From Escherichia coli (GTDB lineage: Bacteria > Pseudomonadota > Gammaproteobacteria > Enterobacterales > Enterobacteriaceae), in the NCBI RefSeq assembly GCF_009931435.1, contig NZ_CP043414.1: DNA of 64,000 nt; one strand, given 5' to 3'. The notes beneath the pieces were generated by a model, which searched no databases, was not told where the DNA came from, and saw nothing but the letters and a program-made list of their open reading frames with translations. The number at the start of each line of letters is the position of its first letter. Positions within the stretch are counted from its first letter, which is position 1. The position numbers and the translations under genes are program-made. Positions 1-57,959 of this stretch are shown here, in pieces.

Positions 1-455
1 ATAGTAATGATGTTGACAACACCACCAATCGCGCCAGAGCCATAAACTGCCGAGCGCGGACCGCGGATATATTCGATACGCTGGACCAGCGAGACCGGGA
101 TCTGGTCAATCTCTGAGTTATTCGAAATACCAGGGCGTGCTACTGGAATGCCATCGACTAACACCAGAACGTGTTTCGCTTCAGTTCCCCGGATAAAAAG
201 AGAAGAACTCTGCCCCATACCACCATTCTGTGCGACATCAACGCCAGGCAAGCGGCGCATCACATCCAGAACAGTTCTGGATTGCCAGCGTTCGATATCC
301 TCACGCGTGACAATATCCGTCGGAGCCAGAACCGTATTGACCGGTTGCTGAAAACGGTTAGCAGTAACGACGAGAGTATCCGGGCTGGTATCCTGTGCCC
401 AAGCGGAAAATGCCGTGACGGAACACGCCGTCAGCAGCGAAGCTTTTTTAATCAT
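1..455 (-). CDS. btuB: TonB-dependent vitamin B12 outer-membrane receptor BtuB, N-terminal part only (gene runs off the window start)
   Basis: Reverse complement of 420-455 reads ATGATTAAAAAAGCTTCGCTGCTGACGGCGTGT = [12 protein letters not shown], continuing [27 protein letters not shown], the BtuB signal peptide and N-terminus as I recall it. The + strand ORF 171..749 in the track is antisense to this gene and its leader. Confidence 0.9.
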
Positions 456-700
456 TGTAAAGCATCCACAATAGAAGAAGGATGCCGCAGGCTTCATCAA
501 TATTACGCGATGATGAGAACCAGATGCGACGTTAGCCGGCAGGTCTTCGGGCTTGGAGGGGTATATAAAATACTAAGAGATGATGACTTCCCACCGGATG
601 GCAGTGTCCGCATAACGCAATCATCGCACCTTTCCTTACCGCTGCGCGTCAGCTCCAGATTTGCACTGGATTCCCTATTAACTCACAGGACCGGCGAGTG
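456..700 (-). promoter_or_regulatory. btuB 5' leader containing the cobalamin (B12) riboswitch
   Basis: Roughly 240-nt untranslated leader directly upstream of the btuB ATG on the minus strand; the sequence matches the E. coli btuB leader as recalled. Boundaries are approximate. Confidence 0.7.
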
Positions 701-823
701 GATGCTACAGGTTGTAACAAGTTGCTGTCCAGACGTAGCTCACAAATAGGAATACATCAAGATCTGGACATCTGATGAGCAATCCCTACAATCGCCGCGT
801 ACATTTCATTTTCAGGATACATC

Positions 824-1924
824 ATGACCCCCGAACACCTTCCAACAGAACAGTATGAAGCGCAGTTAGCCGAAAAAGTGGTACGTTTGCAAAGTATGAT
901 GGCGCCGTTTTCTGACCTGGTTCCGGAAGTGTTTCGCTCGCCGGTCAGTCATTACCGGATGCGTGCGGAGTTCCGCATCTGGCACGATGGCGATGACCTG
1001 TACCACATCATTTTCGATCAACAAACCAAAAGCCGCATCCGTGTAGATAGCTTCCCCGCTGCCAGTGAACTCATCAACCAGTTGATGACGGCGATGATTA
1101 CGGGTGTGCGTAATAATCCCGTTCTGCGCCACAAGCTATTCCAGATTGATTACCTCACTACGTTGAGTAATCAGGCGGTGGTTTCCCTGCTGTACCATAA
1201 AAAGCTGGATGACGAATGGCGTCAGCAGGCGGAAGCTCTGCGCGATGCGTTGCGCGCACAAAATTTAAATGTGCATCTGATTGGTCGGGCAACGAAAACC
1301 AAAATCGCGCTGGACCAGGATTACATCGACGAACGTCTGCCGGTCGCAGGGAAAGAGATGATCTACCGTCAGGTAGAAAACAGCTTTACCCAGCCGAACG
1401 CGGCGATGAATATTCAGATGCTGGAATGGGCGCTGGACGTCACCAAAGGCTCAAAAGGCGATTTACTGGAGCTGTACTGCGGCAACGGTAACTTCTCATT
1501 AGCCCTGGCGCGCAATTTTGATCGGGTATTAGCCACCGAAATCGCCAAGCCTTCAGTCGCTGCCGCGCAATACAACATTGCCGCTAACCATATTGATAAC
1601 GTACAAATTATTCGTATGGCGGCAGAAGAATTTACTCAGGCGATGAAGGGTGTGCGCGAGTTTAACCGCTTGCAAGGGATCGATTTAAAGAGTTATCAAT
1701 GCGAAACCATTTTTGTCGACCCGCCGCGCAGCGGTCTGGACAGTGAAACCGAGAAAATGGTGCAGGCGTATCCACGTATTCTGTATATCTCCTGCAATCC
1801 GGAAACGTTATGCAAGAATCTGGAAACATTAAGCCAGACGCACAAGGTTGAACGTCTGGCTCTATTTGATCAGTTCCCCTACACGCACCATATGGAGTGC
1901 GGCGTATTACTGACCGCGAAGTAA
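824..1924 (+). CDS. trmA: tRNA (uracil54-C5)-methyltransferase
   Basis: 366-aa ORF beginning [29 protein letters not shown], full-length match to TrmA; divergent from btuB as in K-12. Confidence 0.95.
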
Positions 1925-1927
1925 AAC

Positions 1928-1960
1928 CTATGCCGGATGCGCCAGCATCCGGCATGATAC
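1928..1960. terminator. Hairpin downstream of trmA (gccggatgc...gcatccggc), terminator or REP-like
   Basis: Inverted repeat ctatgccggatgcgccagcatccggcatga read directly between convergent trmA and yijD. Confidence 0.4.
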
Positions 1961-1963
1961 CGA

Positions 1964-2323
1964 TTACTCAGCAACTTCCTGCTTACGGTTACGCATCTTC
2001 GCGCCAATCCAGAACACCATAATGACGGACAGTACTGCCGGGAAGAAGTTAGAACCGATATCCGGATATTCCGCACGAACCACAGTGCTATACAGCAGAA
2101 CGCCGAGAATAAAACAGGCAGCTGCCAGACCCGGCAAGCCTACCGGCATAGTGCGATTAAGATAACGTTGATGCAGGCAGTAAACCGTCAGCACCAGGGA
2201 AATAATCGGGAATACAGAAAATGGCACAATGGAGCTAAACAGCGCTGCGAAAGTACCATTAATCGATAAGCCAGCCACCAGCGCCAGCAGCAGCGTACCT
2301 CTATCTTGATTTGCTTGTTTCAT
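1964..2323 (-). CDS. yijD: Small inner-membrane protein YijD
   Basis: 119-aa hydrophobic ORF immediately downstream of fabR on the same strand, as in the fabR-yijD operon. Confidence 0.85.
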
Positions 2324-2970
2324 TACTCGTCCTTCACATTTCCCGGAATAATTGCGGTTTTCTCTTGTTCACGGCGATACCAGTAATAAGCCCCTTTCGA
2401 AATCATTCGCAGTTGCAGTACCAGTCGCTCTTCTAATTGCCGACGTTGTTCGATGCCGACGTCCAACGCCTCGGCCCCCGCACTGAAGACAATCGTCACC
2501 ATGGCTTCGGCTTGCGCTTCAGTAAACGCACGCGGCATATGGTTTTCGAGTTCCAGATAGTCCGCAAGTTCCGCAATGAAGTGCTGAATTTCACGCGCAA
2601 CGGCGGCACGAAACGCAGCGGAGGTGCCGGAGCGTTCCCGCAATAATAACCGGAAGGCGTTAGGATTATTACCGATGAACTCCATAAATGTGGAGACCGA
2701 GGTGCGGATCACACTCCCGCCTTTGGCGATACGCTGACGCGCCTGGCGCATGAGTTGGCGTAGCATTAAACCGCTCTCATCAACCATGGTCAGACCCAGT
2801 TCGTCTACGTCGCGGAAATGCCGATAAAAAGAGGTGGGAGCAATGCCCGCTTCACGCGCCACTTCACGCAAACTCAGGCTGGCGAAGCTGCGTTCAGCAC
2901 TTAATTGGCTAAATGCGGCTTCCACCAACGAACGGCGGGTTTTTTCTTTTTGTTGCGCTCTTACGCCCAT
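2323..2970 (-). CDS. fabR: TetR-family repressor of unsaturated fatty acid biosynthesis FabR
   Basis: ORF 2323..3066; start placed at the internal Met giving [20 protein letters not shown] (215 aa). Choice of start codon is uncertain; the upstream Mets would give longer forms. Confidence 0.85.
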
Positions 2971-3304
2971 CACGATGTCTGAATCCTTGCCAAAAGTACT
3001 GCTGGCACTATACCAGAGAATGAACATACTGGATTGCTCCAGTGTTGTGAATGAACCGTAACGCAATAAAACATATTTACTGCAATTCTTTGGCTGGTTC
3101 TTTTACGAACATCGGAAACCTGCCGCTTAAACGGTGAGTATTGGCGATAAAAATCCAATAAAACGTTCAAGGCAAAAGTAAGAAACAGACAAAGCAAAGG
3201 CCGCTCACGATATAGCCAGATAAATGACGGGGATCAATTGGCTTACCCGCGATAAAATGTTACCATTCTGTTGCTTTTATGTATAAGAACAGGTAAGCCC
3301 TACC

Positions 3305-4705
3305 ATGCCACATTCCTACGATTACGATGCCATAGTAATAGGTTCCGGCCCCGGCGGCGAAGGCGCTGCAATGGGCCTGGTTAAGCAAGGTGCGCGCGTC
3401 GCAGTTATCGAGCGTTATCAAAATGTTGGCGGCGGTTGCACCCACTGGGGCACCATCCCGTCGAAAGCTCTCCGTCACGCCGTCAGCCGCATTATAGAAT
3501 TTAATCAAAACCCACTTTACAGCGACCATTCCCGACTGCTCCGCTCTTCTTTTGCCGATATCCTTAACCATGCCGATAACGTGATTAATCAACAAACACG
3601 TATGCGTCAGGGATTTTACGAACGTAATCACTGTGAAATATTGCAGGGGAACGCTCGCTTTGTTGACGAGCATACGTTGGCGCTGGATTGCCCGGACGGC
3701 AGCGTCGAAACACTAACCGCTGAAAAATTTGTTATTGCCTGTGGTTCTCGCCCTTATCATCCAACAGATGTTGATTTCACCCATCCACGCATTTACGACA
3801 GCGACTCAATTCTTAGCATGCACCACGAACCGCGCCATGTACTTATCTATGGTGCTGGAGTGATCGGCTGTGAATATGCGTCGATCTTCCGCGGTATGGA
3901 TGTAAAAGTGGATCTGATCAACACCCGCGATCGTCTGCTGGCGTTTCTCGATCAGGAGATGTCAGATTCTCTCTCCTATCACTTCTGGAACAGTGGCGTA
4001 GTGATTCGTCACAACGAAGAGTACGAAAAGATCGAAGGCTGTGACGACGGTGTGATTATGCATCTGAAGTCGGGCAAAAAGCTGAAAGCCGACTGTCTTC
4101 TCTATGCCAACGGTCGTACCGGTAATACCGATTCGCTGGCGTTACAGAACATTGGGCTGGAAACTGACAGTCGTGGACAGCTGAAGGTCAACAGCATGTA
4201 TCAGACCGCACAGCCACACGTTTACGCGGTGGGCGACGTGATTGGTTATCCGAGCCTGGCGTCGGCGGCCTATGACCAGGGGCGCATTGCCGCGCAGGCG
4301 CTGGTGAAAGGCGAAGCCACCGCACATCTGATTGAAGATATCCCTACCGGTATTTACACCATCCCGGAAATCAGCTCTGTGGGCAAAACCGAACAGCAGC
4401 TGACCGCGATGAAAGTGCCATATGAAGTGGGCCGCGCCCAGTTCAAACATCTGGCACGCGCACAAATCGTCGGCATGAACGTGGGCACGCTGAAAATTTT
4501 GTTCCATCGGGAAACAAAAGAGATTCTGGGCATTCACTGCTTTGGCGAGCGCGCTGCCGAAATTATTCATATCGGTCAGGCGATTATGGAACAGAAAGGT
4601 GGCGGCAACACTATTGAGTACTTCGTCAACACCACCTTTAACTACCCGACGATGGCGGAAGCCTATCGGGTAGCCGCGTTAAACGGTTTAAACCGCCTGT
4701 TTTAA
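3305..4705 (+). CDS. sthA: Soluble pyridine nucleotide transhydrogenase
   Basis: 466-aa [28 protein letters not shown] with FAD/NAD-binding GxGxxG motifs; divergent from fabR. Confidence 0.95.
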
Positions 4706-5605
4706 CACTTTATCGAAATGGCCATCCATTCTTGCGCGGATGGCCTCTGCCAGCTGCTCATAGCGGCTGCGCAGCGGTGAGCCCGGACGATAAACCAGGC
4801 CAATAGTGCGGCGTGGTTCCGGCTTAATACACGGCAAATAAACAACCCCATCGCGTTTGCGCTCCGGCGGCACAGCCAGTGCAGGCAGTAAAGTGATCCC
4901 GCTACCTGCCGCCACCATGTTGCGCAGAGTTTCCAGGCTGGTCGCGCGGAAGTGTGTATCTTCATCCGCCCCGGCTTCAAAGCAGAAACCCATTGCCTGA
5001 TCGCGCAAACAGTGACCATCTTCCAGCATCAGCAGTTTTTCCCCTGCCAGATCGGCCATCGGTACGCATTCGCGGTTCGCCCACGGGTGATCTTCATAGA
5101 TAGCCAGCAACATTGGCTCATCAAACAACGGCACTTCAATGAATGCTTCGCTCTCTTTCACCAGCGCGAGGATCACGCAATCGAGTTTGCCGCTGTCCAG
5201 TTGCGCCAGTAACTGGTGGGTCTGTGCTTCATGCAGATACATTTCCAGCTTTGGAAAGGTCTGGTGCAGCATCGGGATAATATGCGGTAACAGGTAAGGC
5301 CCAACCGTTGGAATCAAACCAATATGCAGCGGTCCGGACATCGTCTCACCCTGCTGGCTTGCCATCTCTTTAAGGACTTTCACCTCACGCAGCACGGTAC
5401 GCGCCTGATCCACCAGCAGCATTCCCGCCTGGGTGAACAACACTTTACGGCTGGTCCGCTCCAGCAACATCACGCCCAGCTCATCTTCCAGCTTACGAAT
5501 TTGCCCGCTAAGCGTCGGCTGGCTAACGTGGCAGGAGTCTGCCGCACGCCGAAAATGGCGGTGTTCAGCCAATGCCACCAGGTACTCAAGATCACGAATA
5601 TTCAT
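4688..5605 (-). CDS. oxyR: LysR-family hydrogen peroxide-responsive regulator OxyR
   Basis: ORF 4688..5635; start placed at [44 protein letters not shown] (305 aa). Its 3' end overlaps the 3' end of sthA by about 18 nt, convergently. Confidence 0.95.
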
Positions 5606-5609
5606 TATC

Positions 5610-5700
5610 CATCCTCCATCGCCACGATAGTTCATGGCGATAGGTAGAATAGCAATGAACGATTATCCCTATCAAGCATTCTGACTGATAATTGCTCACA
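5610..5700. promoter_or_regulatory. oxyR-oxyS divergent promoter region with OxyR binding site
   Basis: Sequence gataggtagaatagcaatgaacgattatccctatcaagcattctgactgataattgctcaca lies between the oxyR start and the oxyS 5' end; recalled as the classical OxyR footprint. Confidence 0.6.
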
Positions 5701-5816
5701 GAAACGGAGCGGCACCTCTTTAACCCTTGAAGTCACTGCCCGTTTCGAGAGTTTCTCAACTCGAATAACTAAAGCCAACGTGAACTTTTGCGGATCTCCA
5801 GGATCCGCTTTTTTTT
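5701..5816 (+). ncRNA. oxyS: OxyS small regulatory RNA with its rho-independent terminator
   Basis: gaaacggagcggcacctctttaacccttgaagtcactgcccgtttcgagagtttctcaactcgaataactaaagccaacgtgaacttttgcggatctccaggatccgc followed by a T-run; divergent from oxyR. Confidence 0.85.
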
Positions 5817-5855
5817 ATTCTACAGGCCCACAGCAAGAGAGCCTGATAGTAACAG

Positions 5856-7139
5856 TTACTCAATCCGATCTTTGACAATAAAGAAGTAACACAGCGCCCC
5901 GGTGAATGTCACACAGGCCGCGATAACCAGCGCCAGATTAAACGAGTGCGTGGTATCCACTACCCAACCGGTTACGATCGGAGCAAAGGAAGCAAAAACA
6001 AAACTGCCAAAGTTTTGAATCCCGGCGATGGAAGCCACTTTTGTTTCTGACACCATCACCTGCACCAGTCCCCATGCAGATGTTCCCGCGAAATGCACGC
6101 AGAACAGCGCCATTGAGATAAACGCTACAGCCTGGGCTGGCGAGGAGGATTGCACGACCAGCAACGTGCCTAATGCCGACATCATCAAACCGCAGACAAT
6201 AGCCGTTTTACGCGTCTTCGCCAGGTCGTAGCCTTTTTTCGCCAGCCGATCGACAACAATACCGTTAACCCACATCCCGACCGCCGCCGCGAGGAAAGGA
6301 ATCGCCGCCACCCAACCGGTTTTCGCCAGACTGAAGCCTTGCTCGGCTTGTAAATAACCGGGTAACCACGCGATGTAGAGCCAACCGGTATAATTGACGC
6401 CAGAGAAACCTAAAATCATCCCCCAGGTTGTCCGATGCTTAAACAGCGCCAGCCACTCGCTAAATTGTAATTGTGGACGCGGTTTAACCGGCGCGGAGAG
6501 ATAGGTCCGTTCTTCGTCGGTCAGGACAAACTGCGCCCGGTTGCGATACCACGCGTACCAACAGATCCCAACCAGAATCCCCGCCACGCCGATGATGACG
6601 AACATTGCCCGCCAGCCCCATGCCAGCTGCATCAATACAAGAGCAGGAGGCGCAATAGCCTGACCGATAACGGTAGATGAGTTAAAAATCCCCAGCGCCG
6701 TGCCGCGTTCTTTTTGCGCATACCAGTCGGTGATCGACTTTACTCCCGCAGGCATAAATGGCGCTTCGCCAATACCCAGACCGATACGCATTAAAATAAA
6801 GTGGCTAAAAGAATTAACCATTCCTGTTAATGCCTGCATTAATGACCAGAATATTAAGCCTGCGCCTAAAACTATTCGTGGGCCAAAGCGGTCTAGCAAA
6901 ATACCGGAAGGGAGTTGTGAAAAACCATAAGACAGAGAAAATGCAGAAAGCAAAACGCCAAATTCTGTCGCCGATAATCCTAACTCGCCACGAATCGCTT
7001 CGCCTGCCACGCTCAATGACGAACGGTCGAGGAAATTAACGATCCCCGCCATAAATAATAAAACCAGCGTTACTGTCTGAATACGACGAATCCGTTGCGG
7101 TTTATTACCCGCAACACTGGTTGACACATCAACGTCCAT
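5856..7139 (-). CDS. MFS transporter of the anion:cation symporter type (hexuronate/sugar-acid transporter-like, DgoT/GudP/ExuT-like)
   Basis: 427-aa ORF with about 12 hydrophobic segments; N-terminal region LVLLFMAGIVNFLDRSSLSVAGEAIRGELGLSATEFGVLLSAFSLSYGFSQLPSGILLDRFGPR is typical of this family. Not in the K-12 oxyS-argH interval. Confidence 0.85.
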   Translation of the reverse strand: MDVDVSTSVAGNKPQRIRRIQTVTLVLLFMAGIVNFLDRSSLSVAGEAIRGELGLSATEFGVLLSAFSLSYGFSQLPSGILLDRFGPRIVLGAGLIFWSLMQALTGMVNSFSHFILMRIGLGIGEAPFMPAGVKSITDWYAQKERGTALGIFNSSTVIGQAIAPPALVLMQLAWGWRAMFVIIGVAGILVGICWYAWYRNRAQFVLTDEERTYLSAPVKPRPQLQFSEWLALFKHRTTWGMILGFSGVNYTGWLYIAWLPGYLQAEQGFSLAKTGWVAAIPFLAAAVGMWVNGIVVDRLAKKGYDLAKTRKTAIVCGLMMSALGTLLVVQSSSPAQAVAFISMALFCVHFAGTSAWGLVQVMVSETKVASIAGIQNFGSFVFASFAPIVTGWVVDTTHSFNLALVIAACVTFTGALCYFFIVKDRIE

Positions 7140-7205
7140 TTTTAGCTCCTTGAGCGGAATTAATCGATTTGCTGACTATTCAGAAAATAATTAAGCGAAC
7201 CGTTA

Positions 7206-8420
7206 TTACCAGTTCCACAATGTGCCATCTTCCAGTCGTGCGACGGGGAGATACGCCGGGTCATACGGATATTTCGCCGCCAGTTTCTCATCGAAAGAAA
7301 TACCCAGCCCCGGTTCATCGCCTGGGTGCATATAACCTTCATCGAAGCGCCAGCTGTGCGGGAAGACTTCAAGCATTTGTTCGGAATAGCCCATGTACTC
7401 CTGAACACCAAAGTTTGGCACCCAGAGGTCAAAATGCAGCGCCGCCGCATGACAAACAGGCGATAAATCTGAAGGGCCATGCGAACCGGTACGTACCTGA
7501 TAAAGCGATGCAAAATCGGCAATCCGTCGCATCCCGGTAATGCCGCCTGCATGGGTAATCGTCGTGCGAATATAGTCAATCAGCTGCTCTTCGATTAACT
7601 GCTTGCAGTCCCAGATACTGTTAAACACTTCACCGACCGCAATCGGCGTCACAGTATGCTGGCGAATCAGACGAAAACATTCCTGGTTCTCGGCAGGCGT
7701 CGGATCTTCCATCCACAACAGGCGGTAATCCTCAATGCTCTTCCCAAAGCGCGCCGCTTCGATAGGAGTCAGGCGATGGTGCATGTCATGCAACAGATGT
7801 TCGTTAAAACCGAACTTATTACGCACCGCTTCAAATAACTTCGGTGTAAAATCGAGATACTTTTCTGAAGACCACAACTGCTCTTCCGGCCACAGGCCTT
7901 TGGTTGCCGGTTCATACGCCAGTCCTTTGCCCTTCGCCAGGCCATAAGTGGTTTGCATACCCGGTACACCGCACTGCACACGAATCGCCTTAAAGCCCAT
8001 CTGCTGGTGCTTTGCATAGTCTTCAAGGACTTCATCAATCGTGCGCCCGGTGGTGTGGCAATAAACCATCACGCCTTCACGAGAAGCCCCACCAAGCAGT
8101 TGATACAATGGCATATTTGCCGCTTTGGCTTTGATATCCCACAACGCCATATCAATGGCAGAAATGGCCGACATCGTGACGGGGCCACGTCGCCAGTAAG
8201 CACCTTTATAAAAGAATTGCCAGATATCTTCGATACGGCTGGCATCGCGGCCAATTAATTGTGGACAAAGATGATCTTTCAGATAAGAAGCGACCGACAA
8301 TTCGCGACCATTTAATGTGGCATCTCCCAATCCACAAATTCCGCTTGCAGTGGTTATTTTAAGCGTAACGAAATTACGTCCTGGGCAAGTAACAAAAACA
8401 TCTGCAGCAATAATTTTCAT
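7206..8420 (-). CDS. Enolase-superfamily sugar-acid dehydratase, RspA/ManD (D-mannonate dehydratase)-like
   Basis: ORF 7206..8480; start placed at [47 protein letters not shown] (404 aa), closely resembling RspA/ManD N-termini. Likely co-transcribed with the MFS gene downstream. Confidence 0.85.
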
Positions 8421-8789
8421 TATTGCAATCTCCTGTGTTGTAAATAGACGCTTCAAACTTAATTTTACGCCTACTACCATACAAGAGAGAAAGGGCGATT
8501 ATTCAACCGTGATCACATTAAAAATAAAAATTTCCGCCGAGGAACAAAAATATCCTCAAATCTCACCTACACTATTAACTACCATCGTTAAAACAACGTG
8601 TTAAATAATCACATAACAAATTCCTTTAAGGAAAGGAGTTATAACAACAACAAAAGATAATCATATTTTACTTAATTCAATACGTATCGATAGGTTTATT
8701 TAAAAAGGATTTTTCGGAATGAGAGATGAAAAGAAGATACACAAGCAGGAAGAAATACGATTAATATTAGTTGCGGTAAGGGTAGCCGT

Positions 8790-8910
8790 TCCTCCCTTCC
8801 GCAACCCATTAACCGTTGAAGTCACAGACTATTTCAGGCATTTCTCAACTCAAAATAACGACAGCCAACGTGAACTTTATGGCTCTCCAGGATCTGCTTT
8901 GTTTTCCATC
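8790..8910 (+). repeat. Degenerate second copy of the oxyS 3' half (oxyS-like relic)
   Basis: 8813-8905 ccgttgaagtcacagactatttcaggcatttctcaactcaaaataacgacagccaacgtgaactttatggctctccaggatctgctttgttttcc aligns to oxyS 5725-5816 at roughly 75-80 percent identity by eye; the 5' part of oxyS is not recognisable. Confidence 0.7.
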
Positions 8911-10387
8911 AAACAACGGAGCTCAGCGCACTGGCTACCTGTTTAAAGCGAGCAAACCGTCGCCTGAGCATGTGTGCTTTTTCTACATTCGGTTCAAGAC
9001 GAATCACGTTGAGCTGCGTAGCCTTCATGGCCTGTTTGAATCCAGAATAAGCCCCTCCTCCTACTGCCGCACACATTGCAGCCGCTCTACAACCTGACTG
9101 TTCAATATCGACAATTTCAAGAGGCATTTTGCTGGCATCACAAAACATCTGCATCCAGATTCTGGAATGCGTTGGCCCGCCAGAGAAACGAATCGTTTGC
9201 AATGACTTATCAATCTCAATAAGACGGTCCTGATGCAACAAATGAGAAAAGACAACGCCCTGATAAATAGCGTACACCAAATCTTCTCTTTTATGATGCC
9301 CACACAGCCCCAAAAATCCCCCGCTTAATGCCTCATGGTAATTCGAGCCAAACAACCACGGGAAAAAGAGAATATCATTCTGTTTCTCATACCCTCGTTC
9401 CACCCACTCATTAATCACCCGATAACTGTCAGGAAGACCCGGTAAAAATTGCTGCAAGAACCATGTTAAATTACTGGCTGATGTAGGGCTTCCCTCATGG
9501 GCGAAAAATGTACCTGGAATGCTAAATTTCCCCCATACATAGGGATAATCAGAAGGAATAATGCGATCAAAGATTCGCGTTGCAATTGACCAGGTGCCAG
9601 CAACCGCACTTAACGTTGTACTGTCATAGATGCCAGAAGTGAGCGCCGCACCAACGACATCAAAAACACCACCAAAAACAGGCGTTCCGGCGAGAAGCCC
9701 ACATTGGCTGGCTGCTTCAGATGTCACAAACCCAGCTAAATCAGCGGAGCCAATAATATCGGGAACCTTACCCGCAACTTCCTTAATCTCAAATAGGCGA
9801 AAAAGTTCAGCATCATAAGCACTGGTATATTGATTATAAAAATTACTGCCTGAAATATTGGTTTCTTCACAAGCCAGTTTGCCAGTAAGCCGTGAACGTA
9901 TGTAATCATGAACCATCAAAATGGTTCCGATGCGGCCATAATTGTCAGTCTCATGTTTTTTCAACCAATGCAATAGTGCTACAGGGTGCGATGGCCAGAG
10001 CTGTTGCAGACTACGGTGATAACTTTCGCGGTCAATTCCTTGTTCTTTCCAGCTTGCAACCAGTTGTTGTGCGCGAGAATCAGAGGAAACAATGCCGTGT
10101 CGTAAGGGCTTACCTTGCCGGTCGAGCAGGTACAAACCTTTACCATGAGCAGAAAAACTGATGCCATCAATCTGACTCGCAGTAATATTGTTATCTGACA
10201 TCGACAGTGAAATGACCTGGCACGTTACCTTCCATAACGCCTCCATGTCGCGTTCGCAAAAACCAGGACATGGGCTTAACAGAGGTAACGCCTGCGAAGA
10301 GACACCTATTTCACGTCCTTCTGCCGTATAAATTCCCGCTTTGGTTTCTGTACCACCTAAATCGACACCAATAAAATACCGCTCCAT
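8909..10387 (-). CDS. FGGY-family carbohydrate kinase, L-xylulose/3-keto-L-gulonate kinase (LyxK)-like
   Basis: 492-aa ORF MERYFIGVDLGGTETKAGIYTAEGREIGV...; FGGY motifs and strong resemblance to LyxK throughout (DMAELW, HDYIR, EASPTSSGNL-like blocks). Confidence 0.85.
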   Translation of the reverse strand: MERYFIGVDLGGTETKAGIYTAEGREIGVSSQALPLLSPCPGFCERDMEALWKVTCQVISLSMSDNNITASQIDGISFSAHGKGLYLLDRQGKPLRHGIVSSDSRAQQLVASWKEQGIDRESYHRSLQQLWPSHPVALLHWLKKHETDNYGRIGTILMVHDYIRSRLTGKLACEETNISGSNFYNQYTSAYDAELFRLFEIKEVAGKVPDIIGSADLAGFVTSEAASQCGLLAGTPVFGGVFDVVGAALTSGIYDSTTLSAVAGTWSIATRIFDRIIPSDYPYVWGKFSIPGTFFAHEGSPTSASNLTWFLQQFLPGLPDSYRVINEWVERGYEKQNDILFFPWLFGSNYHEALSGGFLGLCGHHKREDLVYAIYQGVVFSHLLHQDRLIEIDKSLQTIRFSGGPTHSRIWMQMFCDASKMPLEIVDIEQSGCRAAAMCAAVGGGAYSGFKQAMKATQLNVIRLEPNVEKAHMLRRRFARFKQVASALSSVV

Positions 10388-10403
10388 GATCCCTCCTTAG
10401 TTT

Positions 10404-11267
10404 CTAAATATTATCCCAGCCGGCAAGGCGCATTTTCTCTTCAATCCATTGACGTGCATGAATAATTTCTAATAGAGGTTCCGTCGCTTTTTCTGTCCAC
10501 ATTTCTATCAGAAACGTTCCGCGATAATTAAGATTACGCAGGATCTTAAATAATTTAATAAAATCTACACACCCTTCACCAAAAGGAACGTCACGAAATT
10601 GCCCTGGAGAATCAGGCGTTACTGGGTACGTATCTTTAAGATGGATTGCGGCAATTCGATCAATCCCCTTTACCAGCTCACTTTCCAGTTCATTACCCCA
10701 TGCGGTCAGATTGCCAACATCCGGATAAACGGTAAACCAAGGGGAATTAATTTTTGTATCCAGGACTTTCCATTTACTAATAGAATTAATAAATGGCGTA
10801 TCCATGATCTCTACAGCACACATAACTTGTGCCGCTGCGGCCTGTTCAGCTGTCCAGGCCATCGCATCTTCAAACCAGGCGATAGTTTCTTCATTCTGCG
10901 GCTCATAATAAACGTCATAGCCTGCCAGTTGGATTGTTCGAATCCCCAAATCCTGCGCCAGGCGTAACGCCTTCAACATAATCGTACGTGCCTGCTGACG
11001 AGTATCTCTATCATGGCTACCAAATGGAAAACGCCGGTGAGCAGACAGGCACATTGTCGGAATACGGATCCCCGTTTGCTGAATGGCGCTAATAAGCTCC
11101 ATACGCTCGGTGAGCGACCAGTCCAGGCGGGCGAGTCGTTCATCATTCTCATCTACCGACATCTCAACAAAATCAAAACCGCAAGATTTAGCCAGGGCTA
11201 GTTTCTCTACCCAACTGGTATTCCTGGGTAGCGCTTTTTCATAAATACCTAACGGGTGGCGTCGCAT
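10404..11267 (-). CDS. L-ribulose-5-phosphate 3-epimerase (UlaE/SgbU family, xylose-isomerase-like TIM barrel)
   Basis: 287-aa ORF LGIYEKALP...GFDFVEMSVDENDERLARLDWS...MCLSAHRRFPFGS...IQLAGYDVYYE...YPDVGNLTAW...LIEMW, matching UlaE/SgbU nearly block for block. Confidence 0.85.
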   Translation of the reverse strand: MRRHPLGIYEKALPRNTSWVEKLALAKSCGFDFVEMSVDENDERLARLDWSLTERMELISAIQQTGIRIPTMCLSAHRRFPFGSHDRDTRQQARTIMLKALRLAQDLGIRTIQLAGYDVYYEPQNEETIAWFEDAMAWTAEQAAAAQVMCAVEIMDTPFINSISKWKVLDTKINSPWFTVYPDVGNLTAWGNELESELVKGIDRIAAIHLKDTYPVTPDSPGQFRDVPFGEGCVDFIKLFKILRNLNYRGTFLIEMWTEKATEPLLEIIHARQWIEEKMRLAGWDNI

Positions 11268-12343
11268 TATTTTCCCTCACGAGTGATCAATTGTTGTTGA
11301 AAGATTTTCCGGCTCTTATTCATGTCACGCTGCAACTGCCATTTTTGTTTGATGAATTTAAATGCCAGTGCGGCGATCAATGTGATCCCCCATACCGCCA
11401 GATTGAAATGCAAACTAAGTCCCAACAGACTAAGGCCGGTAGCAATAACCTGAAGCACAAGTAAGGCACAAAAAACATGACTGACTTTACCCGCCCCACC
11501 GAATGGATCTGTGCCTCCCAATACAATTGCAAGAACCGTCAAGAGCAGATAGGAATCGCCATAGCCCATACGCGCCGAATTAAATCGCGCGAGCATAATA
11601 AGACCTGCTAATACACACAACATGCTGGATATAGCATATATAGCAATTAATACGCGGTCGGTGCGAATACCGCTAAACCATGTGGCGTTAATATTACTGC
11701 CACACATATAAATCGTTTTTCCCGTACGGGTTTTGCCGAGGAACAGAGCTAAAGCAACGGTGGTGACGATAAAAATTATCATCGGTACTGGGATCCCCAT
11801 GATAACTTCAGACCCAATACTGCGGACTACTGGTGGCATACCACTTAAAGCTGCCCCCTTAGTCAGGTAAATACCGATACCACTAATAATGGTCATGCTA
11901 CCCAATGTGACCAAAATAGGGTGAGCGCCTATATGAGAAATAATTGACCCAGTAATAGCTCCAATGATGATGGCAATAAGCATCGCCCCGACAATAGCCA
12001 GGAAGAGCCAAAACAACTGACTACCTGTAGATGCATCTGCGGGTACATATTGAATCAACAGCCAGGCCATAAACAGGCTGGTCAGATTCGCAGTACCGAT
12101 GATTGCCAGATTGAGCCCCCCGCTCAACATGGGTATAAACATCGCAAACGTGAGCAACCCAAGCTCTGGCAATTGAAATGCAATGCTCAGAAAAGTATTG
12201 CCGGTGAAAAAACGCCCCGGCATTACCAGACTAAATAACACCACCGCAATAAAACATATTGATAATAAGCCTGAACTGGTACCATCTAGTGGAAAAAATA
12301 TCCGCTTGTTCATTTCGATCCTCCCGTTAGACGAAACCAACAT
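11267..12343 (-). CDS. Sugar ABC transporter permease (ribose/xylose-type)
   Basis: 358-aa polytopic membrane ORF in an operon with a second permease and a two-domain ATPase. True start may be the internal MNKRIFF Met, since the first codons overlap the upstream permease. Confidence 0.8.
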   Translation of the reverse strand: MLVSSNGRIEMNKRIFFPLDGTSSGLLSICFIAVVLFSLVMPGRFFTGNTFLSIAFQLPELGLLTFAMFIPMLSGGLNLAIIGTANLTSLFMAWLLIQYVPADASTGSQLFWLFLAIVGAMLIAIIIGAITGSIISHIGAHPILVTLGSMTIISGIGIYLTKGAALSGMPPVVRSIGSEVIMGIPVPMIIFIVTTVALALFLGKTRTGKTIYMCGSNINATWFSGIRTDRVLIAIYAISSMLCVLAGLIMLARFNSARMGYGDSYLLLTVLAIVLGGTDPFGGAGKVSHVFCALLVLQVIATGLSLLGLSLHFNLAVWGITLIAALAFKFIKQKWQLQRDMNKSRKIFQQQLITREGK

Positions 12344-13319
12344 CAGTTTCTTTACGTTTTTTGTAATGGGTCACACAAATCGCCGAGACAATAACCACTC
12401 CAATAACGATATTGACGAAATAACTCGAGATGCCAATCAAATTAAGGCCGTTTTTAAGAATACCGATAAGAAATACGCCCATAAGCGTACCAATGACCGT
12501 ACCACGTCCGCCTGATAAACTGGCACCGCCCAATACCGCTGCAGCCAGCACATCCAACTCTCCGCCAACCAATGCATTCGGCACAACTTCACTCATACGA
12601 TAAGCTTGCAGCATTCCACCAATTGCTGCAGCGGCACCAAGATAACCATAAGCAAACAGATAAATTAGCGACACCCGAATCCCAATACGTCTTGCTGATT
12701 CGGTATTCCCTCCCACGGCATAAAGCTGACGCCCAATATGGGTTTTGTTCATTATCATCCACGTCAGAAATGCCATTCCCAGCATAACCACTAACGGTAA
12801 TCCGATCTGGTAATCTTCTCCGCCAAATTCAAAACTCAGGAAAGAACGCTGCGTAATCCACCAATCCGGTAAATCGTAAATACTGTGGCCATTAGTCAAC
12901 CACATCAACATACCGAACAGTAGCGACTGCATACTAATCGTAATGATGATGGAAACGACATTAAGGTAATAAATAAGAATAGCGTTTATCAAACCAAAAA
13001 TGATGCCAAGAAAAACAGCAAACACCAGACAGAAAAATGGATTTGATAGCGTTTCATTAAGCAGTAACGACGCCACAACATATTGCACAACCGAAGCTAC
13101 TGCTGCAAAAGAGATATCAATTCCGCCAGTAACCAATACGACAAATAATCCGAGGGCGAAAATACCCGTTACGGCATAACTTTCCGAGAGATCGAGCAAG
13201 TTCTGTATTGATAAAAACTCATCGCTCATGATGGAAAAAAATACCAGCATGAGAACAATGACCCATCCTAACCAAGCTTCGACTGAACGAGGAAACCGCA
13301 GCCGCATAAAGCTAACCAT
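12327..13319 (-). CDS. Sugar ABC transporter permease (ribose/xylose-type)
   Basis: 330-aa polytopic membrane ORF; start overlaps the ATPase stop (translational coupling). Confidence 0.8.
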   Translation of the reverse strand: MVSFMRLRFPRSVEAWLGWVIVLMLVFFSIMSDEFLSIQNLLDLSESYAVTGIFALGLFVVLVTGGIDISFAAVASVVQYVVASLLLNETLSNPFFCLVFAVFLGIIFGLINAILIYYLNVVSIIITISMQSLLFGMLMWLTNGHSIYDLPDWWITQRSFLSFEFGGEDYQIGLPLVVMLGMAFLTWMIMNKTHIGRQLYAVGGNTESARRIGIRVSLIYLFAYGYLGAAAAIGGMLQAYRMSEVVPNALVGGELDVLAAAVLGGASLSGGRGTVIGTLMGVFLIGILKNGLNLIGISSYFVNIVIGVVIVSAICVTHYKKRKETDVGFV

Positions 13320-14829
13320 TAATCACCTCCGCCAACTGCTGCTCGGTATAATTCGAAGGCAACAGCTCATTAATAATCTTTCCGCGCTTCATATGAAAAA
13401 TACGATCGCAGTTATAATAAGCTTCTGGTGCTTCATCAGTAATTAATATCACTGAAATACCCACACCTGAAAGCCGATGAATAAGCTGGTAAATACTATC
13501 TTTTGCGCCAATATCTACACCTACCGTTGGCGCATCCAGAATTAAAACCTTAGGTCGTGTTAAAATCCATTTAGCCAGGACAACCTTTTGTTGATTGCCG
13601 CCAGATAGCGTTGAAAGTGGATTATTTGGATCGGTGACTTTAATATCCAAATCCTGGATCCACTCCTTGACTAAGGTTTCTTTTCGATTTTCATCAATAA
13701 ACCCCGATGCCGTCTTTAAACGATCCAGAATCGAGAGCACCATATTATCGCTGATAGATTGGGGTAATACGGCCCCCAGTGTCAGGCGATCTTCTGAAAC
13801 ATATGCTATTCCCAGTTTTACCGCATGCGTGTTGTCTTTAATTGTAACGGGCTTACCTTCCAGATAAATATCACCACTATCTGGTCGAGTAATACCGAAA
13901 AGACTCAATGCTAATTCAGTTCTCCCCGCACCAAGTAAACCACACAATCCCAGAACCTCGCCCTGGTGTAGTTTTAGAGAAACATCTTCAAATTGCCCTT
14001 TTCTGCATAATTTGTTTAGTTCAAGGACTACTTTGCCTTCAACGCTATTTGGTAGCTTCTTCTGGTGGACTATAGTTTTTCCGGTCATTAACTCAGTAAT
14101 ATCGCCCGGAGAAAGTTGATTGGCAGCCCACGTTCCAATTATCTCTCCATCACGGATGACCGTAATCCGATCTGAAATTTCCTTAACTTCATCAAGGCGG
14201 TGGCTAACAAAAACTACGGTAATATTTTTATCGCGTAAGTAATTCACTGTGCGTAGTAATTGATTAACTTCTGTACGCGTCAATGATGCCGTTGGCTCGT
14301 CCATGATGACTAACCGGGCATCGGCAATCAGAGCCCGGCAAATCGCGACCTGTTGGCGTTGTGCAATCGGCAAATGTTGTACTAACGCATCAGGATCGAG
14401 ATTGAATTGCAGCTCCTGAATTATTTTCTGCGATACATCTCGAAGTTGTTTTTTTCTGTGCAGCCCTAAATATCCCTTCAGGTTGTATTCAAAAGCGATA
14501 TTTTCAGCAACAGAAAGATTTGGGAATAAAGAAAGATCCTGATATATCACCTGAATACCCAGTTCCCGAGCTTTATCAGGAGAAAGACGAGTCCAGGACT
14601 TACCATCTATAATAATTTCACTTCCCGAATCAGGGACATAAACACCACACAGCGTTTTGATCAGAGTACTTTTACCACACCCATTCGCACCAGCAAGACA
14701 ATGAACCTCACCTTTATTTAAGGTAAGATTGATATTCTTTAGAGCCCTATGGCCACCGAAACTTTTCGTTAGTGACCTTAGCGTCACTAATGGTTGCTCC
14801 GCATTCTTCTCTATAATATGAGGCATCAT
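13312..14829 (-). CDS. Sugar ABC transporter ATP-binding protein with duplicated ABC domains (RbsA/MglA type)
   Basis: 505-aa ORF with two Walker A sites (GANGCGKST and GLLGAGRTEL) and two signature motifs (LSGGNQQK region). Confidence 0.88.
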   Translation of the reverse strand: MMPHIIEKNAEQPLVTLRSLTKSFGGHRALKNINLTLNKGEVHCLAGANGCGKSTLIKTLCGVYVPDSGSEIIIDGKSWTRLSPDKARELGIQVIYQDLSLFPNLSVAENIAFEYNLKGYLGLHRKKQLRDVSQKIIQELQFNLDPDALVQHLPIAQRQQVAICRALIADARLVIMDEPTASLTRTEVNQLLRTVNYLRDKNITVVFVSHRLDEVKEISDRITVIRDGEIIGTWAANQLSPGDITELMTGKTIVHQKKLPNSVEGKVVLELNKLCRKGQFEDVSLKLHQGEVLGLCGLLGAGRTELALSLFGITRPDSGDIYLEGKPVTIKDNTHAVKLGIAYVSEDRLTLGAVLPQSISDNMVLSILDRLKTASGFIDENRKETLVKEWIQDLDIKVTDPNNPLSTLSGGNQQKVVLAKWILTRPKVLILDAPTVGVDIGAKDSIYQLIHRLSGVGISVILITDEAPEAYYNCDRIFHMKRGKIINELLPSNYTEQQLAEVING

Positions 14830-14892
14830 AATATTCCTGAATACGACTAAAGGAATTCCGGGTCAAATTTGACCCGGTGATTTACGGTAAAA

Positions 14893-15897
14893 TTACAAGC
14901 CTAGCTTCACTAAACGTCGTGTATTTTCAAGATCGAGCTTTTCTGGATTATCACTATAAATAGTGTTGTTATTAACCTTGATCTCGCCCATATCACCGAT
15001 TTTTACACCGTCTTTAATAGGTTCACCGTTCATCATTGCCGTCGCAACCTGGACAAAAACCTTACCCGCAATCATAGGGTTTGAAATATATCCCCCATCA
15101 ATGGCACCTTTTTCGAGTAGCTTAATTCCCTGACCTGGAGTGAAGGTTCCAAAAACGCAAATTGCATCATTTTTCTTCCGCTTATCAATAGCACGCCCCG
15201 CACCAATTGGTCCTTGTGAACCAAATGACATAATGCCTTTAAGATCTTTATATTTAGACATTAAATCGTTCGTCGTGCGCATTGAATCATCCACCGACTC
15301 AGCAACACCAAAACGATCTTCAACCAACGTCATATTTGGATAATGTTCTTTTTGATAGGCAATCGCGGCATTGGCCCAGTCATTTACCAAAGGCACAGTC
15401 AGACTGCCGACAAACATGGCGTATTTACCTTCTTCGCCCATACACTTCGCCATATCTTTCATATGATTGGCACCCATTGTCTGGGTATTTAACAACTCAA
15501 AATCCCAATCTGCATTTTTTTGATCTGGTGATTCGTGGGTAATAACTTTAATACCGGCTTCTTGTGCACGCTTAAGTACAGGTTCAAGAACCTTTGCATC
15601 GTTAGGAACAACACCAATAACATCCACTTTTCGTGCAATTAAATCTTCAATCGCCCGAACCTGTTCAGCTGGATCTGCCGTTGTAGGGCCGACCTGCCAT
15701 GCATCAACCCCCAATAGTTTTCCTTCATTTTTAATGCCTTGTTCCATCACATTAAACCAGGGAATTCCACCGACTTTTACTACTACCCCCATCGTAAAAG
15801 GTTTATTCGCTTTTTGTGATGTTACAGTCTGATCAGCCCATGCAGCAGTGGAAGATAATACGGTAGCAATAAGGCAGGGTAAGATTAATTTTTTCAT
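14893..15897 (-). CDS. Periplasmic sugar-binding protein of the ABC transporter
   Basis: 334-aa ORF with signal peptide MKKLILPCLIATVLSSTAAWA and a periplasmic-binding-protein type I fold pattern; first gene after the regulator. Confidence 0.8.
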   Translation of the reverse strand: MKKLILPCLIATVLSSTAAWADQTVTSQKANKPFTMGVVVKVGGIPWFNVMEQGIKNEGKLLGVDAWQVGPTTADPAEQVRAIEDLIARKVDVIGVVPNDAKVLEPVLKRAQEAGIKVITHESPDQKNADWDFELLNTQTMGANHMKDMAKCMGEEGKYAMFVGSLTVPLVNDWANAAIAYQKEHYPNMTLVEDRFGVAESVDDSMRTTNDLMSKYKDLKGIMSFGSQGPIGAGRAIDKRKKNDAICVFGTFTPGQGIKLLEKGAIDGGYISNPMIAGKVFVQVATAMMNGEPIKDGVKIGDMGEIKVNNNTIYSDNPEKLDLENTRRLVKLGL

Positions 15898-16019
15898 CGT
15901 AATTTCCTTAAGAAATAGTTCAGGTGTCAGGAAAACTCGATATAATATCGACCTGACTATTTATATAATTTATAATCCCTTAGGCATTGATTAATAATTT
16001 AGACAATAAATAACGCCTA

Positions 16020-16829
16020 TTATTTATCAACCTCCACAATGTTTAATTGTGGAAATTGTGTTCGATACCGAGTATCTGTACAAACATTAGTCACCAGAAT
16101 ATCGATTTCATCCAGCGTGCATATTTTACTAAATGCATACTGTTCAAACTTAGTGGAGTCGACCAGCAATATTTTTTGTCCTGACACCTGAAGCATCACC
16201 TGTTTAAGTCTGGCATTAATTTCACTGCCATCGCGGACACCATTCCCCAGATTCAACCCCTGGCATGAAAAGAAAAAACTGTTGATTTGAAAATTTCGGA
16301 TCGCACTCTCTGCAACCGGGCCATGAAAATCATCATGTCGCTCAGAATACTCACCACCGATACCAATAATTCGAACTCGATCACGGCAAGCTAACGCCTG
16401 AATTATCCGTAATGAATTTGTAACTACGGTAACATCTATATCGGGAATTTGACGAGCTAAAAACCAACAAGTACTACTGTTATCCATTAAAATACAATCA
16501 CCAGGGTGAATAAATTGCAATGCGGCCTTCGCAATTCTGGCTTTTATATCAGGATTTTCTTCAGTCCGTTTACGGAATGATTCCGCACGATCGATACTAT
16601 TATCTTGCCACGCATTATCGGCGAGCATAACCGGAGCGCTATCAGATGAATCCAGAGCGACCGCGCCACCAAAGCTACGGATTAACTTTTTGTTGCGCTC
16701 CAGTACCGTTAAATCCCGACGAATTGTCTCAGGAGACGCTTTAAATAATCGTGATAATTCAGTTACCCGCACAGCACCTTGTTTTTGTACATGTGCGCAT
16801 ATCATTTTATGGCGCTCTGCCTGCAACAT
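16020..16829 (-). CDS. DeoR-family transcriptional regulator
   Basis: 269-aa ORF with N-terminal HTH (VRVTELSRLFKASPETIRRDLTVLERNKKLIRSFGGA) and a DeoR C-terminal sugar-phosphate-binding region. Confidence 0.85.
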   Translation of the reverse strand: MLQAERHKMICAHVQKQGAVRVTELSRLFKASPETIRRDLTVLERNKKLIRSFGGAVALDSSDSAPVMLADNAWQDNSIDRAESFRKRTEENPDIKARIAKAALQFIHPGDCILMDNSSTCWFLARQIPDIDVTVVTNSLRIIQALACRDRVRIIGIGGEYSERHDDFHGPVAESAIRNFQINSFFFSCQGLNLGNGVRDGSEINARLKQVMLQVSGQKILLVDSTKFEQYAFSKICTLDEIDILVTNVCTDTRYRTQFPQLNIVEVDK

Positions 16830-17270
16830 AGTATCGGTCCGTTATTATCAAATTAGCATGCTTATATAATTAACTGTTCCCTCATAAAATAAAGTGATAG
16901 GAATCAAGATTCATTTTATAATTATAATCGCAAACAGGAATGGTGATCTTTATCACAAATTAAATTGAGAACACTCTACTATTTGACATTACTTTGAGAT
17001 ATCGGTCACTAAATAAGTCTTATTCTGCCATCTAACGAAAAATTTAAATACAAAAACAAAAATAATCGGGCATAGCAATCGCTTCCATTCATGACCGAAT
17101 ACGCCCGAATAAAACCGTTTATACCCACTTATCCTCTTTCGTTGCCTTCTTACATGCCTTGAATATTTTACATTTCTTATATTCAGCGTAATTTAGGAAA
17201 CATAATTTATGAGCAAAAAAAGCCCAAACTCAAAAGTTAAAGTTTATTTATATAATACATACAGATTATC

Positions 17271-17975
17271 GTGGAGTTAAAAATGGATATGCTAAAGGAA
17301 AAAGTTCTTGCTGCGAATTTATCATTACCCCTTCATCAGTTAGTGACGTTTACCTGGGGAAATGTTAGTGGTGTTGATCGCGAAAAAGGTGTCATGGTTA
17401 TTAAACCTTCTGGGGTCGAATACAGCCAAATGGGCATTGCAGATATGGTGGTAGTGGATTTACAAAGTGGTGAAGTTATTGATGGACACAGGAAACCCTC
17501 TTCAGACACCGATACTCATCTGGCGCTATACCGTGCTTTCCCGGATATTGGTGGTATCGTTCATACCCATTCCCGACACGCCACAATATGGGCTCAGGCC
17601 GGAAAAGATCTCACGGCCTTTGGGACAACCCACGCTGATTATTTCTACGGCACTATCCCCTGTACACGCCCCATGAAGGATGACGAAATTAATGGACAAT
17701 ATGAATATGAAACGGGGCGAGTGATTATTGAAACGTTCAGACAACGAGAAATATCTCCCGCTGACATTCCGGCTGTTTTAGTAAACAGTCATGGCCCCTT
17801 TGCCTGGGGAACTGATCCCGCGAACGCCGTGCATAACGCCGTTGTACTTGAAGAAATTGCCTATATGAATCTCTTTACACAACAACTACAGCCCCATCTT
17901 ACGGCTATTCAACAGCCTCTACTGGATAAGCATTTTTTACGCAAGCATGGTGCCAATGCTTATTACGGGCAGTAA
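17271..17975 (+). CDS. L-ribulose-5-phosphate 4-epimerase (AraD/SgbE/UlaF class II aldolase family)
   Basis: 234-aa ORF; [41 protein letters not shown]...[17 protein letters not shown]...[16 protein letters not shown]...HSHGPFAWG...[17 protein letters not shown] is very close to AraD. Start may be one of the downstream Mets. Confidence 0.88.
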
Positions 17976-57202: not shown

Positions 57203-57339
57203 TTTTCTCCTTAATTATGTAAGGAGTATTTGATCATGTATAAGCAATAAAAAAACAGCTTCAGGCAATGAGGAATATCTCAATTTTTAAACATAAAATG
57301 CGAATTGTTTAGTACAAAAAAGCAGCGTTAAGTGATCTT

Positions 57340-57585
57340 TCCCTGTCGGCATGTTGACCACTGACGAATGGGGTAGTTACGCTAGAGAGTTACCAAAGGA
57401 GAAGCATCTGACTGGTAAGATTTTTACTCAGCATATTGAGCGTAACAATCTGACCCTGAGAACCCGAATCAAACGTCTGGCCCGCAGAACCATCTGTTTC
57501 TCGCGTTCTGTAGAACTTCATGAAAAAGTCATCGGTGCTTTTATCGAAAATATATGTTCTACTAATTGGAGTCATCACCCTTCTG
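57340..57585 (+). mobile_element. IS1-family 3' remnant (InsB C-terminal fragment plus terminal inverted repeat)
   Basis: ORF 57351..57665 begins MLTTDEWGSYARELPKEKHLTGKIFTQHIERNNLTLRTRIKRLARRTICFSRSVELHEKVIG, matching the InsB C-terminus; aattggagtcatcaccc at about 57565-57580 resembles the IS1 terminal repeat. Confidence 0.7.
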
Positions 57586-57634
57586 ATGAGCTTTCCTTGG
57601 ATGATTACCAGACTGAATACATAGCCAAAGATTT

Positions 57635-57958: not shown

Positions 57959-57959
57959 T

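Follow-up and report, generated by a model that had tools for sequence, protein, structure and literature searches.

A conserved divergent control region with predicted CRP sites and FucR-type half-sites in an accessory sugar module of Escherichia coli

The sugar module and its divergent spacer

The locus lies in a 64,000-nucleotide stretch of E. coli DNA, referred to here as the window, and all positions are counted from its first letter unless stated otherwise. Two oppositely oriented genes of a sugar module flank an intergenic spacer, as follows.

16020 to 16829, minus strand: gene for a DeoR/GlpR-family regulator, the first gene of a leftward transport and catabolism operon (Pfam, NCBIfam and RefSeq annotation).
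16830 to 17282, no strand: the whole divergent control region, 453 bp, GC 0.30.
17283 to 17975, plus strand: gene for an L-ribulose-5-phosphate 4-epimerase of the AraD/SgbE/UlaF type, called araD here (NCBIfam NF009002 and annotation).

The araD-like protein scores 433.7 bits against NF009002, exceeding the cut-off. The regulator contains the PF08220 HTH_DeoR domain (55.6 bits) and the PF00455 DeoRC domain (169.5 bits), both over their cut-offs, which places it in the DeoR/GlpR family. Its top NCBIfam match is FucR, the "L-fucose operon activator" (NF007720), at 161.1 bits; this does not reach the 259-bit cut-off for a FucR orthologue, and the SrlR and AgaR scores of the protein are nearly equal to its FucR score. 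Because the identity to K-12 FucR is 33%, the regulator is, as judged from its sequence, a paralogue of FucR at best and not FucR itself.

The module encodes an ABC transporter, an FGGY kinase and L-ribulose-5-phosphate 3- and 4-epimerases. Taken by family name only, these proteins suggest a route from L-xylulose-type substrates through L-xylulose-5-phosphate and L-ribulose-5-phosphate to D-xylulose-5-phosphate. The module is located between oxyR and argH and is carried by 146 of the 5,426 complete E. coli genomes, as a single chromosomal copy in each and in two alleles. This accessory distribution supports the view, put forward in a preliminary description of the window, that the operon was acquired horizontally. 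The adjoining manD-MFS module, beside oxyR, is present in 1,860 of the 5,426 genomes; therefore, the island is composite, and the regulator/araD module studied here is the rarer, nested acquisition. The two parts have GC contents of 0.50 (manD-MFS, 5856-8420) and 0.435 (ABC transporter, kinase, epimerases and regulator, 8909-17975). A 488-bp gap (8421-8908, GC 0.35), longer than the studied spacer, separates the end of the FGGY kinase gene from the manD start; it is probably the junction of the two modules together with the manD promoter, and no regulator half-sites of the kind described below were found in it. Across the island the window matches NZ_CM148325.1 at 100%, and outside it (1-6000 and 18000-42000) the two differ by several percent and by small indels, for example by ~9% over the first 2 kb, which is the btuB region; different chromosomal backgrounds therefore appear to share the island allele. 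A literature search found no paper on the regulator/araD gene cluster.

The spacer had been delimited in the preliminary description as 16830-17270 (440 bp). The intergenic region is real, but its right-hand end has to be moved to 17282. Position 17271 begins the GTG start of the longest araD open reading frame, which was the source of the former end point, and the ATG at 17283 is the araD start in the RefSeq annotation of an identical sequence and in 19 of 19 orthologues. The strong AT-richness reported for the spacer was confirmed, with a GC content of 0.30 against 0.435 in the island coding DNA and 0.516 in the remaining window, and equally AT-rich 453-bp windows make up 0.24% of all those across the 64 kb. 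It is also fair to call the spacer much longer than two promoters need, yet it is no extreme outlier: when the nine spacers between divergent genes in the corresponding part of the closest annotated genome are ranked by length, it comes first, followed by spacers of 368, 331 and 308 bp, and this yardstick is a rough one in that the comparison genome is collinear with the window solely across the island (6-18 kb).

GTDB species genomes were scanned with the regulator protein, and 19 loci were recovered from Atlantibacter, Citrobacter, Yersinia, Erwinia, Pantoea, Affinibrenneria and Providencia, that is, from seven genera besides that of E. coli. All 19 loci share the same order of araD, a spacer of 423-631 bp (GC 0.30-0.42), the regulator gene and a binding-protein gene. 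The length and the AT-richness of the spacer are thus conserved features of the module and not peculiarities of the E. coli copy. Nine of the 19 loci come from Providencia, and because many of the loci are interrelated, the sequence counts given below overstate independence.

A spacer of this composition could be explained by H-NS silencing as the main reason for its length and AT-richness, with the specific regulators serving mainly as anti-silencers. The AT content of the spacer relative to the island and the background is that expected of an H-NS target, and the restriction of the module to a small set of genomes would fit as well. However, the 10-bp high-affinity H-NS motif of the literature has one match in the spacer (with two mismatches) where ~0.6 are expected from the 83 matches in the 64 kb, so that there is no enrichment. 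Moreover, the AT-richness and the length are retained in the orthologous spacers of the seven other genera, several of which, such as Providencia, are low in G+C, and spacer DNA would not look foreign there. Conservation is found in discrete CRP- and FucR-type motifs with exact spacing rather than in the general AT content. Nothing in these comparisons speaks specifically for H-NS. We consider it unlikely that H-NS is the main reason for the spacer, and silencing of this kind may be compatible with the explanation that we favour below.

Conserved elements of the spacer

Conserved blocks were identified in a MAFFT alignment and in an ungapped alignment anchored on CRP site 1 alone, the latter to avoid alignment bias. 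In the anchored alignment, information peaks at the leftward -10 element, at the cores of three CRP sites and at the first regulator half-site, and the mean pairwise identity is 0.67 in motif columns versus 0.41 in the other columns. The elements are listed below from left to right; the transcription starts, and the distances counted from them, are predicted.

16859, minus strand: predicted transcription start of the regulator operon, with a 30-nt leader, placed 7 nt downstream of the conserved -10.
16866 to 16871, minus strand: -10 hexamer AATTAT of the leftward promoter, at -12 to -7, a class II placement with CRP site 1 at -41.5.
16890 to 16911, no strand: CRP-family site 1, core AGTGA-N6-TCAAG, centre 16900.5, predicted -41.5.
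16939 to 16960, no strand: CRP site 2, GGTGA-N6-TCACA, centre 16949.5, predicted -90.5, one core mismatch.
16992 to 17013, no strand: CRP site 3, TGAGA-N6-TCACT, centre 17002.5, predicted -143.5, two core mismatches.
17064 to 17073, minus strand: regulator half-site O(-), ATGCCCGATT, the top-scoring position of the window at 17.2 bits.
17091 to 17120, plus strand: three direct half-sites in 10-bp phase, ATGACCGAAT, ACGCCCGAAT and AAAACCGTTT (the last weak), from conservation and the matrix.
17152 to 17162 (approximate), no strand: E. coli-specific insertion of ~11 bp between the array and the araD promoter, a gap in the other genera in the MAFFT alignment.
17167 to 17172, plus strand: predicted -35 TTTACA of the araD promoter, in a conserved block, with a 16-17 bp spacer to the -10.
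17189 to 17194, plus strand: predicted -10 TAATTT of the araD promoter, TAnnnT in 21 of 21 sequences, with a predicted start near 17201.
17201 to 17282, plus strand: araD 5' leader of ~82 nt from the predicted start, with the Shine-Dalgarno sequence GGAG at 17273-17276.

The -10 of the leftward promoter reads nAnnnT (A at the second and T at the sixth position) in 21 of 21 orthologous sequences and nAnnAT in 19 of them, and it is situated exactly 29.5-34.5 bp from the centre of CRP site 1 in every one. At the predicted start, the -1/+1 step is pyrimidine-purine in all 21 sequences (C followed by A or G in 19, T followed by A in two). CRP site 1 itself, GTGA...TCAAG, is nearly invariant over eight genera. 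One caveat weakens its assignment to CRP: it has three mismatches to the CRP core and combines a CRP-like half with an FNR-like one (TTGAT-N4-ATCAC on the minus strand), so FNR may bind there. Sites 2 and 3 are good predicted CRP sites. Of the 20 sequences with a scoring site 1, 15 have a CRP-like match (at most 3 mismatches in 10) at a distance of exactly 49 bp from it, and GTGAT...TCaC is kept at the position of site 2 in the anchored alignment; site 3 is mostly TGTGA-N6-TCAC(G/A/T) in the orthologues. The distance between sites 1 and 2 is 49 bp wherever both score, and that between sites 2 and 3 is usually 53 bp, but 54 bp in four Providencia strains; in two sequences site 3 has no match. 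The additional sites, 49 and 102 bp upstream of site 1, lie on the same helix face, and their spacing is conserved. Synergy with upstream CRP sites is known. Activation of the class II type from -41.5 is standard (PMC12632272). A rightward class II promoter that would use CRP site 3 was ruled out, as no conserved -10 occurs at the required position.

Beyond the CRP block lies a row of half-sites with the consensus ATGMCCGAWT, which keep a strict 10-bp phase in 21 of 21 sequences, one or two being inverted and three or four direct; in the window the direct copies occupy 17091-17100, 17101-17110 and 17111-17120. The distance from CRP site 3 to O(-) is 66-67 bp in all sequences, and the gap between the inverted and the direct copies is 7, 17 or 37 bp, always 7 modulo 10. 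In a count matrix of 71 half-sites, G, C, C and G are nearly invariant, and A or C stands opposite the T/G position of FucR. When the matrix was built without the E. coli sequences, its top three positions among the 128,000 of the 64 kb (both strands) were 17064, 17091 and 17101. Strong matches cluster in the spacer within each 8.8-kb locus, and in an unbiased census the GC-rich hexamers GCCCGA, TGCCCG and TGACCG were present in 10-12 of 12 lineages despite a spacer GC of 30-40%. Operator-like repeats for a DeoR-family protein, as anticipated in the preliminary description, are therefore present: four 10-bp half-sites between 17064 and 17120 that are conserved in all 21 sequences, with the top three matrix positions inside the array. 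The direct-repeat search of 16830-17270 proposed there was less rewarding. Finders working on the lone sequence gave nothing usable, and it was the comparison of 21 sequences that revealed the array: a repeat search of the window sequence (seed 6) returned three short direct families and 23 inverted pairs, with the array appearing as one weak pair, and Tandem Repeats Finder returned nothing for the same sequence. Over the 64 kb, neither ATGMCCGAWT nor TGTGA-N6-TCACA is more frequent than in shuffled sequences; the signal consists of clustering and conservation and not of the count. A simple scan for sigma-70 promoters and terminators likewise gave two promoter-like matches against 2.8 expected, none at the conserved positions of either promoter.

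The array lies upstream of both core promoters, at about -85 to -140 of araD and about -205 to -260 of the regulator operon. A matrix scan down to 5 bits found no conserved half-site at either core promoter or start in the 21 sequences, and there is none in the spacer between the regulator and binding-protein genes. A half-site-like sequence in the araD promoter spacer, ATTCGGCG, was rejected as a candidate, being confined to the Citrobacter/Atlantibacter clade and without the invariant CAT; a similar sequence in E. coli is one base off. We assign the array to the adjacent DeoR-family regulator as its presumed binding site on the grounds that both are found together in eight genera and that the motif is of the FucR type.

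At the rightward promoter, both the -35 and the -10 of araD are weak matches to the consensus, and the weak -10 hexamer is compatible with activator dependence. The distance from the array to the araD promoter is ~40 bp in the orthologues and 46 bp in E. coli, owing to the ~11 extra bases at 17152-17162. This insertion amounts to one helical turn, and the phase is therefore kept. The centre of the nearest strong half-site lies at -74.5 to -76.5 relative to the predicted araD start, or one or two turns farther away, and the predicted start-to-start distances fall into just three classes (321-322, 331 and 342-344 bp), so that they differ by whole helical turns.

The araD leader varies in sequence among the orthologues and ranges from 69 to 256 nt in length. 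It bears on the idea that the spacer hides another gene or an RNA element, such as a 23-codon open reading frame at 17209-17280, a riboswitch or other leader element, a small RNA or the remnant of a mobile element. The open reading frame has a plausible ribosome-binding site and ends 2 nt before the araD start; it was rejected as a gene, however, because the allele carried by 137 of the 146 genomes has ACG in place of its ATG and AGGCA in place of its AGGAA. No Rfam family matches the spacer at E < 1 (at E ≤ 10 only chance-level eukaryotic, viral and Bacillus families appear), no stable fold was found in the leader (z = -0.38 versus shuffles), and these results, together with the variability of the leader, argue against a riboswitch or structured leader. 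The spacer is single-copy in every genome, which also counts against the idea. We regard a hidden gene or RNA of any of these kinds as highly improbable.

Variation within E. coli gives a further view of the same elements. The two alleles, of which the commoner is that of the 137 genomes, differ at 25 of 453 spacer positions, a divergence of 5.5% that compares with 0.9% and 2.0% for the genes on either side. The 94 predicted functional positions contain not one of these substitutions, where 5.2 would be expected (P = 0.0025).

The spacer owes its length to two promoters, three CRP sites (~120 bp), an array of 60-70 bp, fixed linkers and two leaders. The preliminary description had left CRP out, and it is mainly the three phased CRP sites that explain the length. 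On the evidence of these motifs, the region appears to be a normal kind of bacterial control region, holding two predicted promoters, three CRP-family sites and a row of regulator repeats. Its layout is strongly conserved and unusually rigid, and it belongs to a known type, the FucR-like/CRP divergent control region of sugar genes.

Known systems and the mode of control

The closest parallel is provided by the fuc locus of K-12. According to a published study, CCGAAAACGGTCATT and TTAAGAGCGGTCATT are FucR sites by mutation and activate PfucAO with CRP from upstream of the CRP site, and CGG and CA are the most conserved bases of the FucR consensus (PMC11011485). The core of the island half-site, CGG(T/G)CAT, is that of this consensus and of the validated sites OFucR2 and OFucR3 (PMC11011485); read as its reverse complement, AWTCGGKCAT, the island half-site matches the FucR core including the T/G degeneracy. 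The fucA-fucP spacer of K-12 (546 bp, GC 0.36) contains ATGACCG or ATGCCCG five times, along with CRP-like sites. Like the island, fucPIKUR-fucAO thus combines a long AT-rich divergent spacer with multiple CRP sites and repeated copies of one and the same half-site core, and both loci have the regulator gene within a regulated operon. Differences also exist. In fuc there are two convergent half-site pairs (~29 bp centre to centre), an arrangement that was not found in the island, where direct 10-bp-phased repeats and an inverted copy surround one dyad; the island has three evenly phased CRP sites, all of them to one side; and the island enzymes are of an L-xylulose/L-ribulose-5-phosphate type route and not of fucose catabolism. 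In the K-12 spacer itself (1190-1735 of the extracted locus), we observed three more copies of the core at 216-225, 275-284 and 316-325 (1405-1414, 1464-1473 and 1505-1514 in extracted-locus coordinates). Two of them pair with the validated sites as ATGACCG-N22-CGGTCAT, and the available text of PMC11011485 names only OFucR2 and OFucR3.

Because the half-site is the same, cross-recognition by FucR is possible, and the host FucR could read the array, alone or with the island regulator, which would couple the module to the L-fucose regulon. The identity of the core with the FucR consensus, T/G degeneracy included, speaks for such an input. However, in the seven other genera 19 of 19 loci have both the array and the regulator gene next to it, and the arrangement of its half-sites is unlike that of fuc. 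We consider a role of the host FucR in reading the array to be quite improbable.

The GlpR operators of glpD and glpTQ-glpACB resemble the island array in having multiple 10-bp-phased half-sites and in being co-regulated by CRP. The glpD half-site, ATGTTCG, shares just ATGnnCG with that of the island. Whereas the island has direct repeats, successive glpD half-sites face in opposite directions and form 20-bp palindromes just ahead of the start of the gene, where they cover the core promoter. No such 20-bp palindromes overlapping the core promoter were found in the island spacer, in which the direct repeats lie ~46-136 bp upstream of the predicted -35, and the island matrix gave no score on the glpD operators.

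These operators bear on the question of repression. Most DeoR/GlpR-family proteins are repressors that are released by phosphorylated intermediates (PMC12632272), and classical repression of this kind, in which an inducer-free oligomer on the array shuts both promoters until a sugar phosphate releases it, would be the usual behaviour of the family and is the main rival of the reading favoured below. The shut-off would come about by looping or through a repressive nucleoprotein complex with bent CRP-site DNA. GlpR operons, with 4-8 operator sites each (PMC7567609), offer a precedent for an array, the glpD half-sites being likewise 10-bp-phased and of the form ATGnnCG, and the rigid helical phasing of the island would suit a loop. 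However, no half-site lies over either predicted core promoter or start in the 21 sequences. In addition, the core of the motif is that of the activator FucR, and each promoter has a weak predicted -10, as is usual where an activator is needed. Repression is possible but, in our judgement, unlikely, and the repressor logic implied by the word operator in the preliminary description is doubtful, given an array upstream of both core promoters with the core of the FucR (activator) motif.

Two other divergent sugar systems are instructive. At ulaG-ulaABCDEF, the DeoR-family regulator UlaR and CRP act on divergent promoters of a pathway that ends with L-ribulose-5-phosphate 3- and 4-epimerases, and in these features the island, with its predicted CRP sites, is alike. 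UlaR is a repressor with operators at the promoters and IHF between them, and the NCBIfam similarity of the island regulator to it is lower, at 112 bits. At malEp-malKp, divergent promoters share a central, phased CRP block and asymmetric activator repeats within one nucleoprotein complex. The mal activator, MalT, belongs to another family, and its repeats stand to either side of the CRP block; the island array is found on one side only.

We think it likely that the spacer is a composite, stereospecific control region in which two divergent promoters of an accessory pentulose-type module are governed by a FucR-like, CRP-assisted activator. At the leftward promoter, CRP would act from -41.5 in the class II manner, and CRP sites 2 and 3 lie farther upstream, at -90.5 and -143.5. 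The regulator, carrying an intermediate of the pathway in phosphorylated form, would act as FucR does: it would activate araD directly from about -75 to -125, and it would help the CRP-dependent leftward promoter from upstream. We favour FucR-like activation because the array lies upstream of both core promoters and has the FucR core, the -10 elements are weak and the indels keep the helical phase; a phosphorylated intermediate is proposed as the inducer because of the family precedent. In this model the sequence elements, their spacing and their conservation are observed, whereas the start sites, the protein at each site, the activator mode and the inducer are inferred from motifs and conservation. 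A more speculative extension is that the 320-345 bp from start to start form one rigid nucleoprotein assembly, in which the bends at the three CRP sites let one array control both promoters through a FucR-paralogue activator; to this version we give little credence.

If the regulator is indeed a FucR-paralogue activator, this would be a rare mode of action in the DeoR family. The predicted map, with two promoters, three CRP sites and a regulator motif, offers a concrete account of the regulation of an uncharacterized accessory sugar module that is distributed over E. coli, Citrobacter, Atlantibacter, Yersinia, Erwinia/Pantoea, Affinibrenneria and Providencia. The occurrence of the half-site CGG[T/G]CAT of FucR, in a different arrangement, with a 33%-identical paralogue should help to predict DeoR-family regulons. 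As the half-site is identical to that of FucR, the island may cross-talk with the fucose regulon, and only the arrangement of the sites would insulate the two, which raises the question of how paralogues with the same half-site avoid cross-talk. The restriction of spacing changes to whole helical turns across eight genera is a natural example of stereospecific constraint. None of these findings on the control region overturns the current understanding.

Other features of the operon and the window

Within the leftward operon, the gap between the regulator and binding-protein genes (15898-16019, minus strand) contains a nested hairpin, GTCAGG-TCGATAT...ATATCGA-...CCTGAC (z = -2.0 versus shuffles). 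Its inner stem shows a compensatory change in Citrobacter, from CCGAT/ATCGG to CCAAT/ATTGG, and the hairpin is absent from Yersinia, Erwinia and Pantoea. The same gap contains CAATRCCAGWGAAAG, which is common to Yersinia, Erwinia, Pantoea, Citrobacter and Atlantibacter and degenerate in the present E. coli sequence. The element could be an intercistronic RNA element for processing, stabilization or attenuation, or an internal promoter region.

Far from the island, positions 57960-62144 (minus strand) hold a gene for a 1,394-aa Rhs protein with RHS_repeat, RHS core and DUF6531 domains and a DUF4329 C-terminal tip, which is missing at the same position in the closest island-matching genome. The core of the gene has a GC content of ~0.6, and its 3' tip and the downstream DNA (57000-58200) have a GC content of 0.30-0.36, the minimum of the window.
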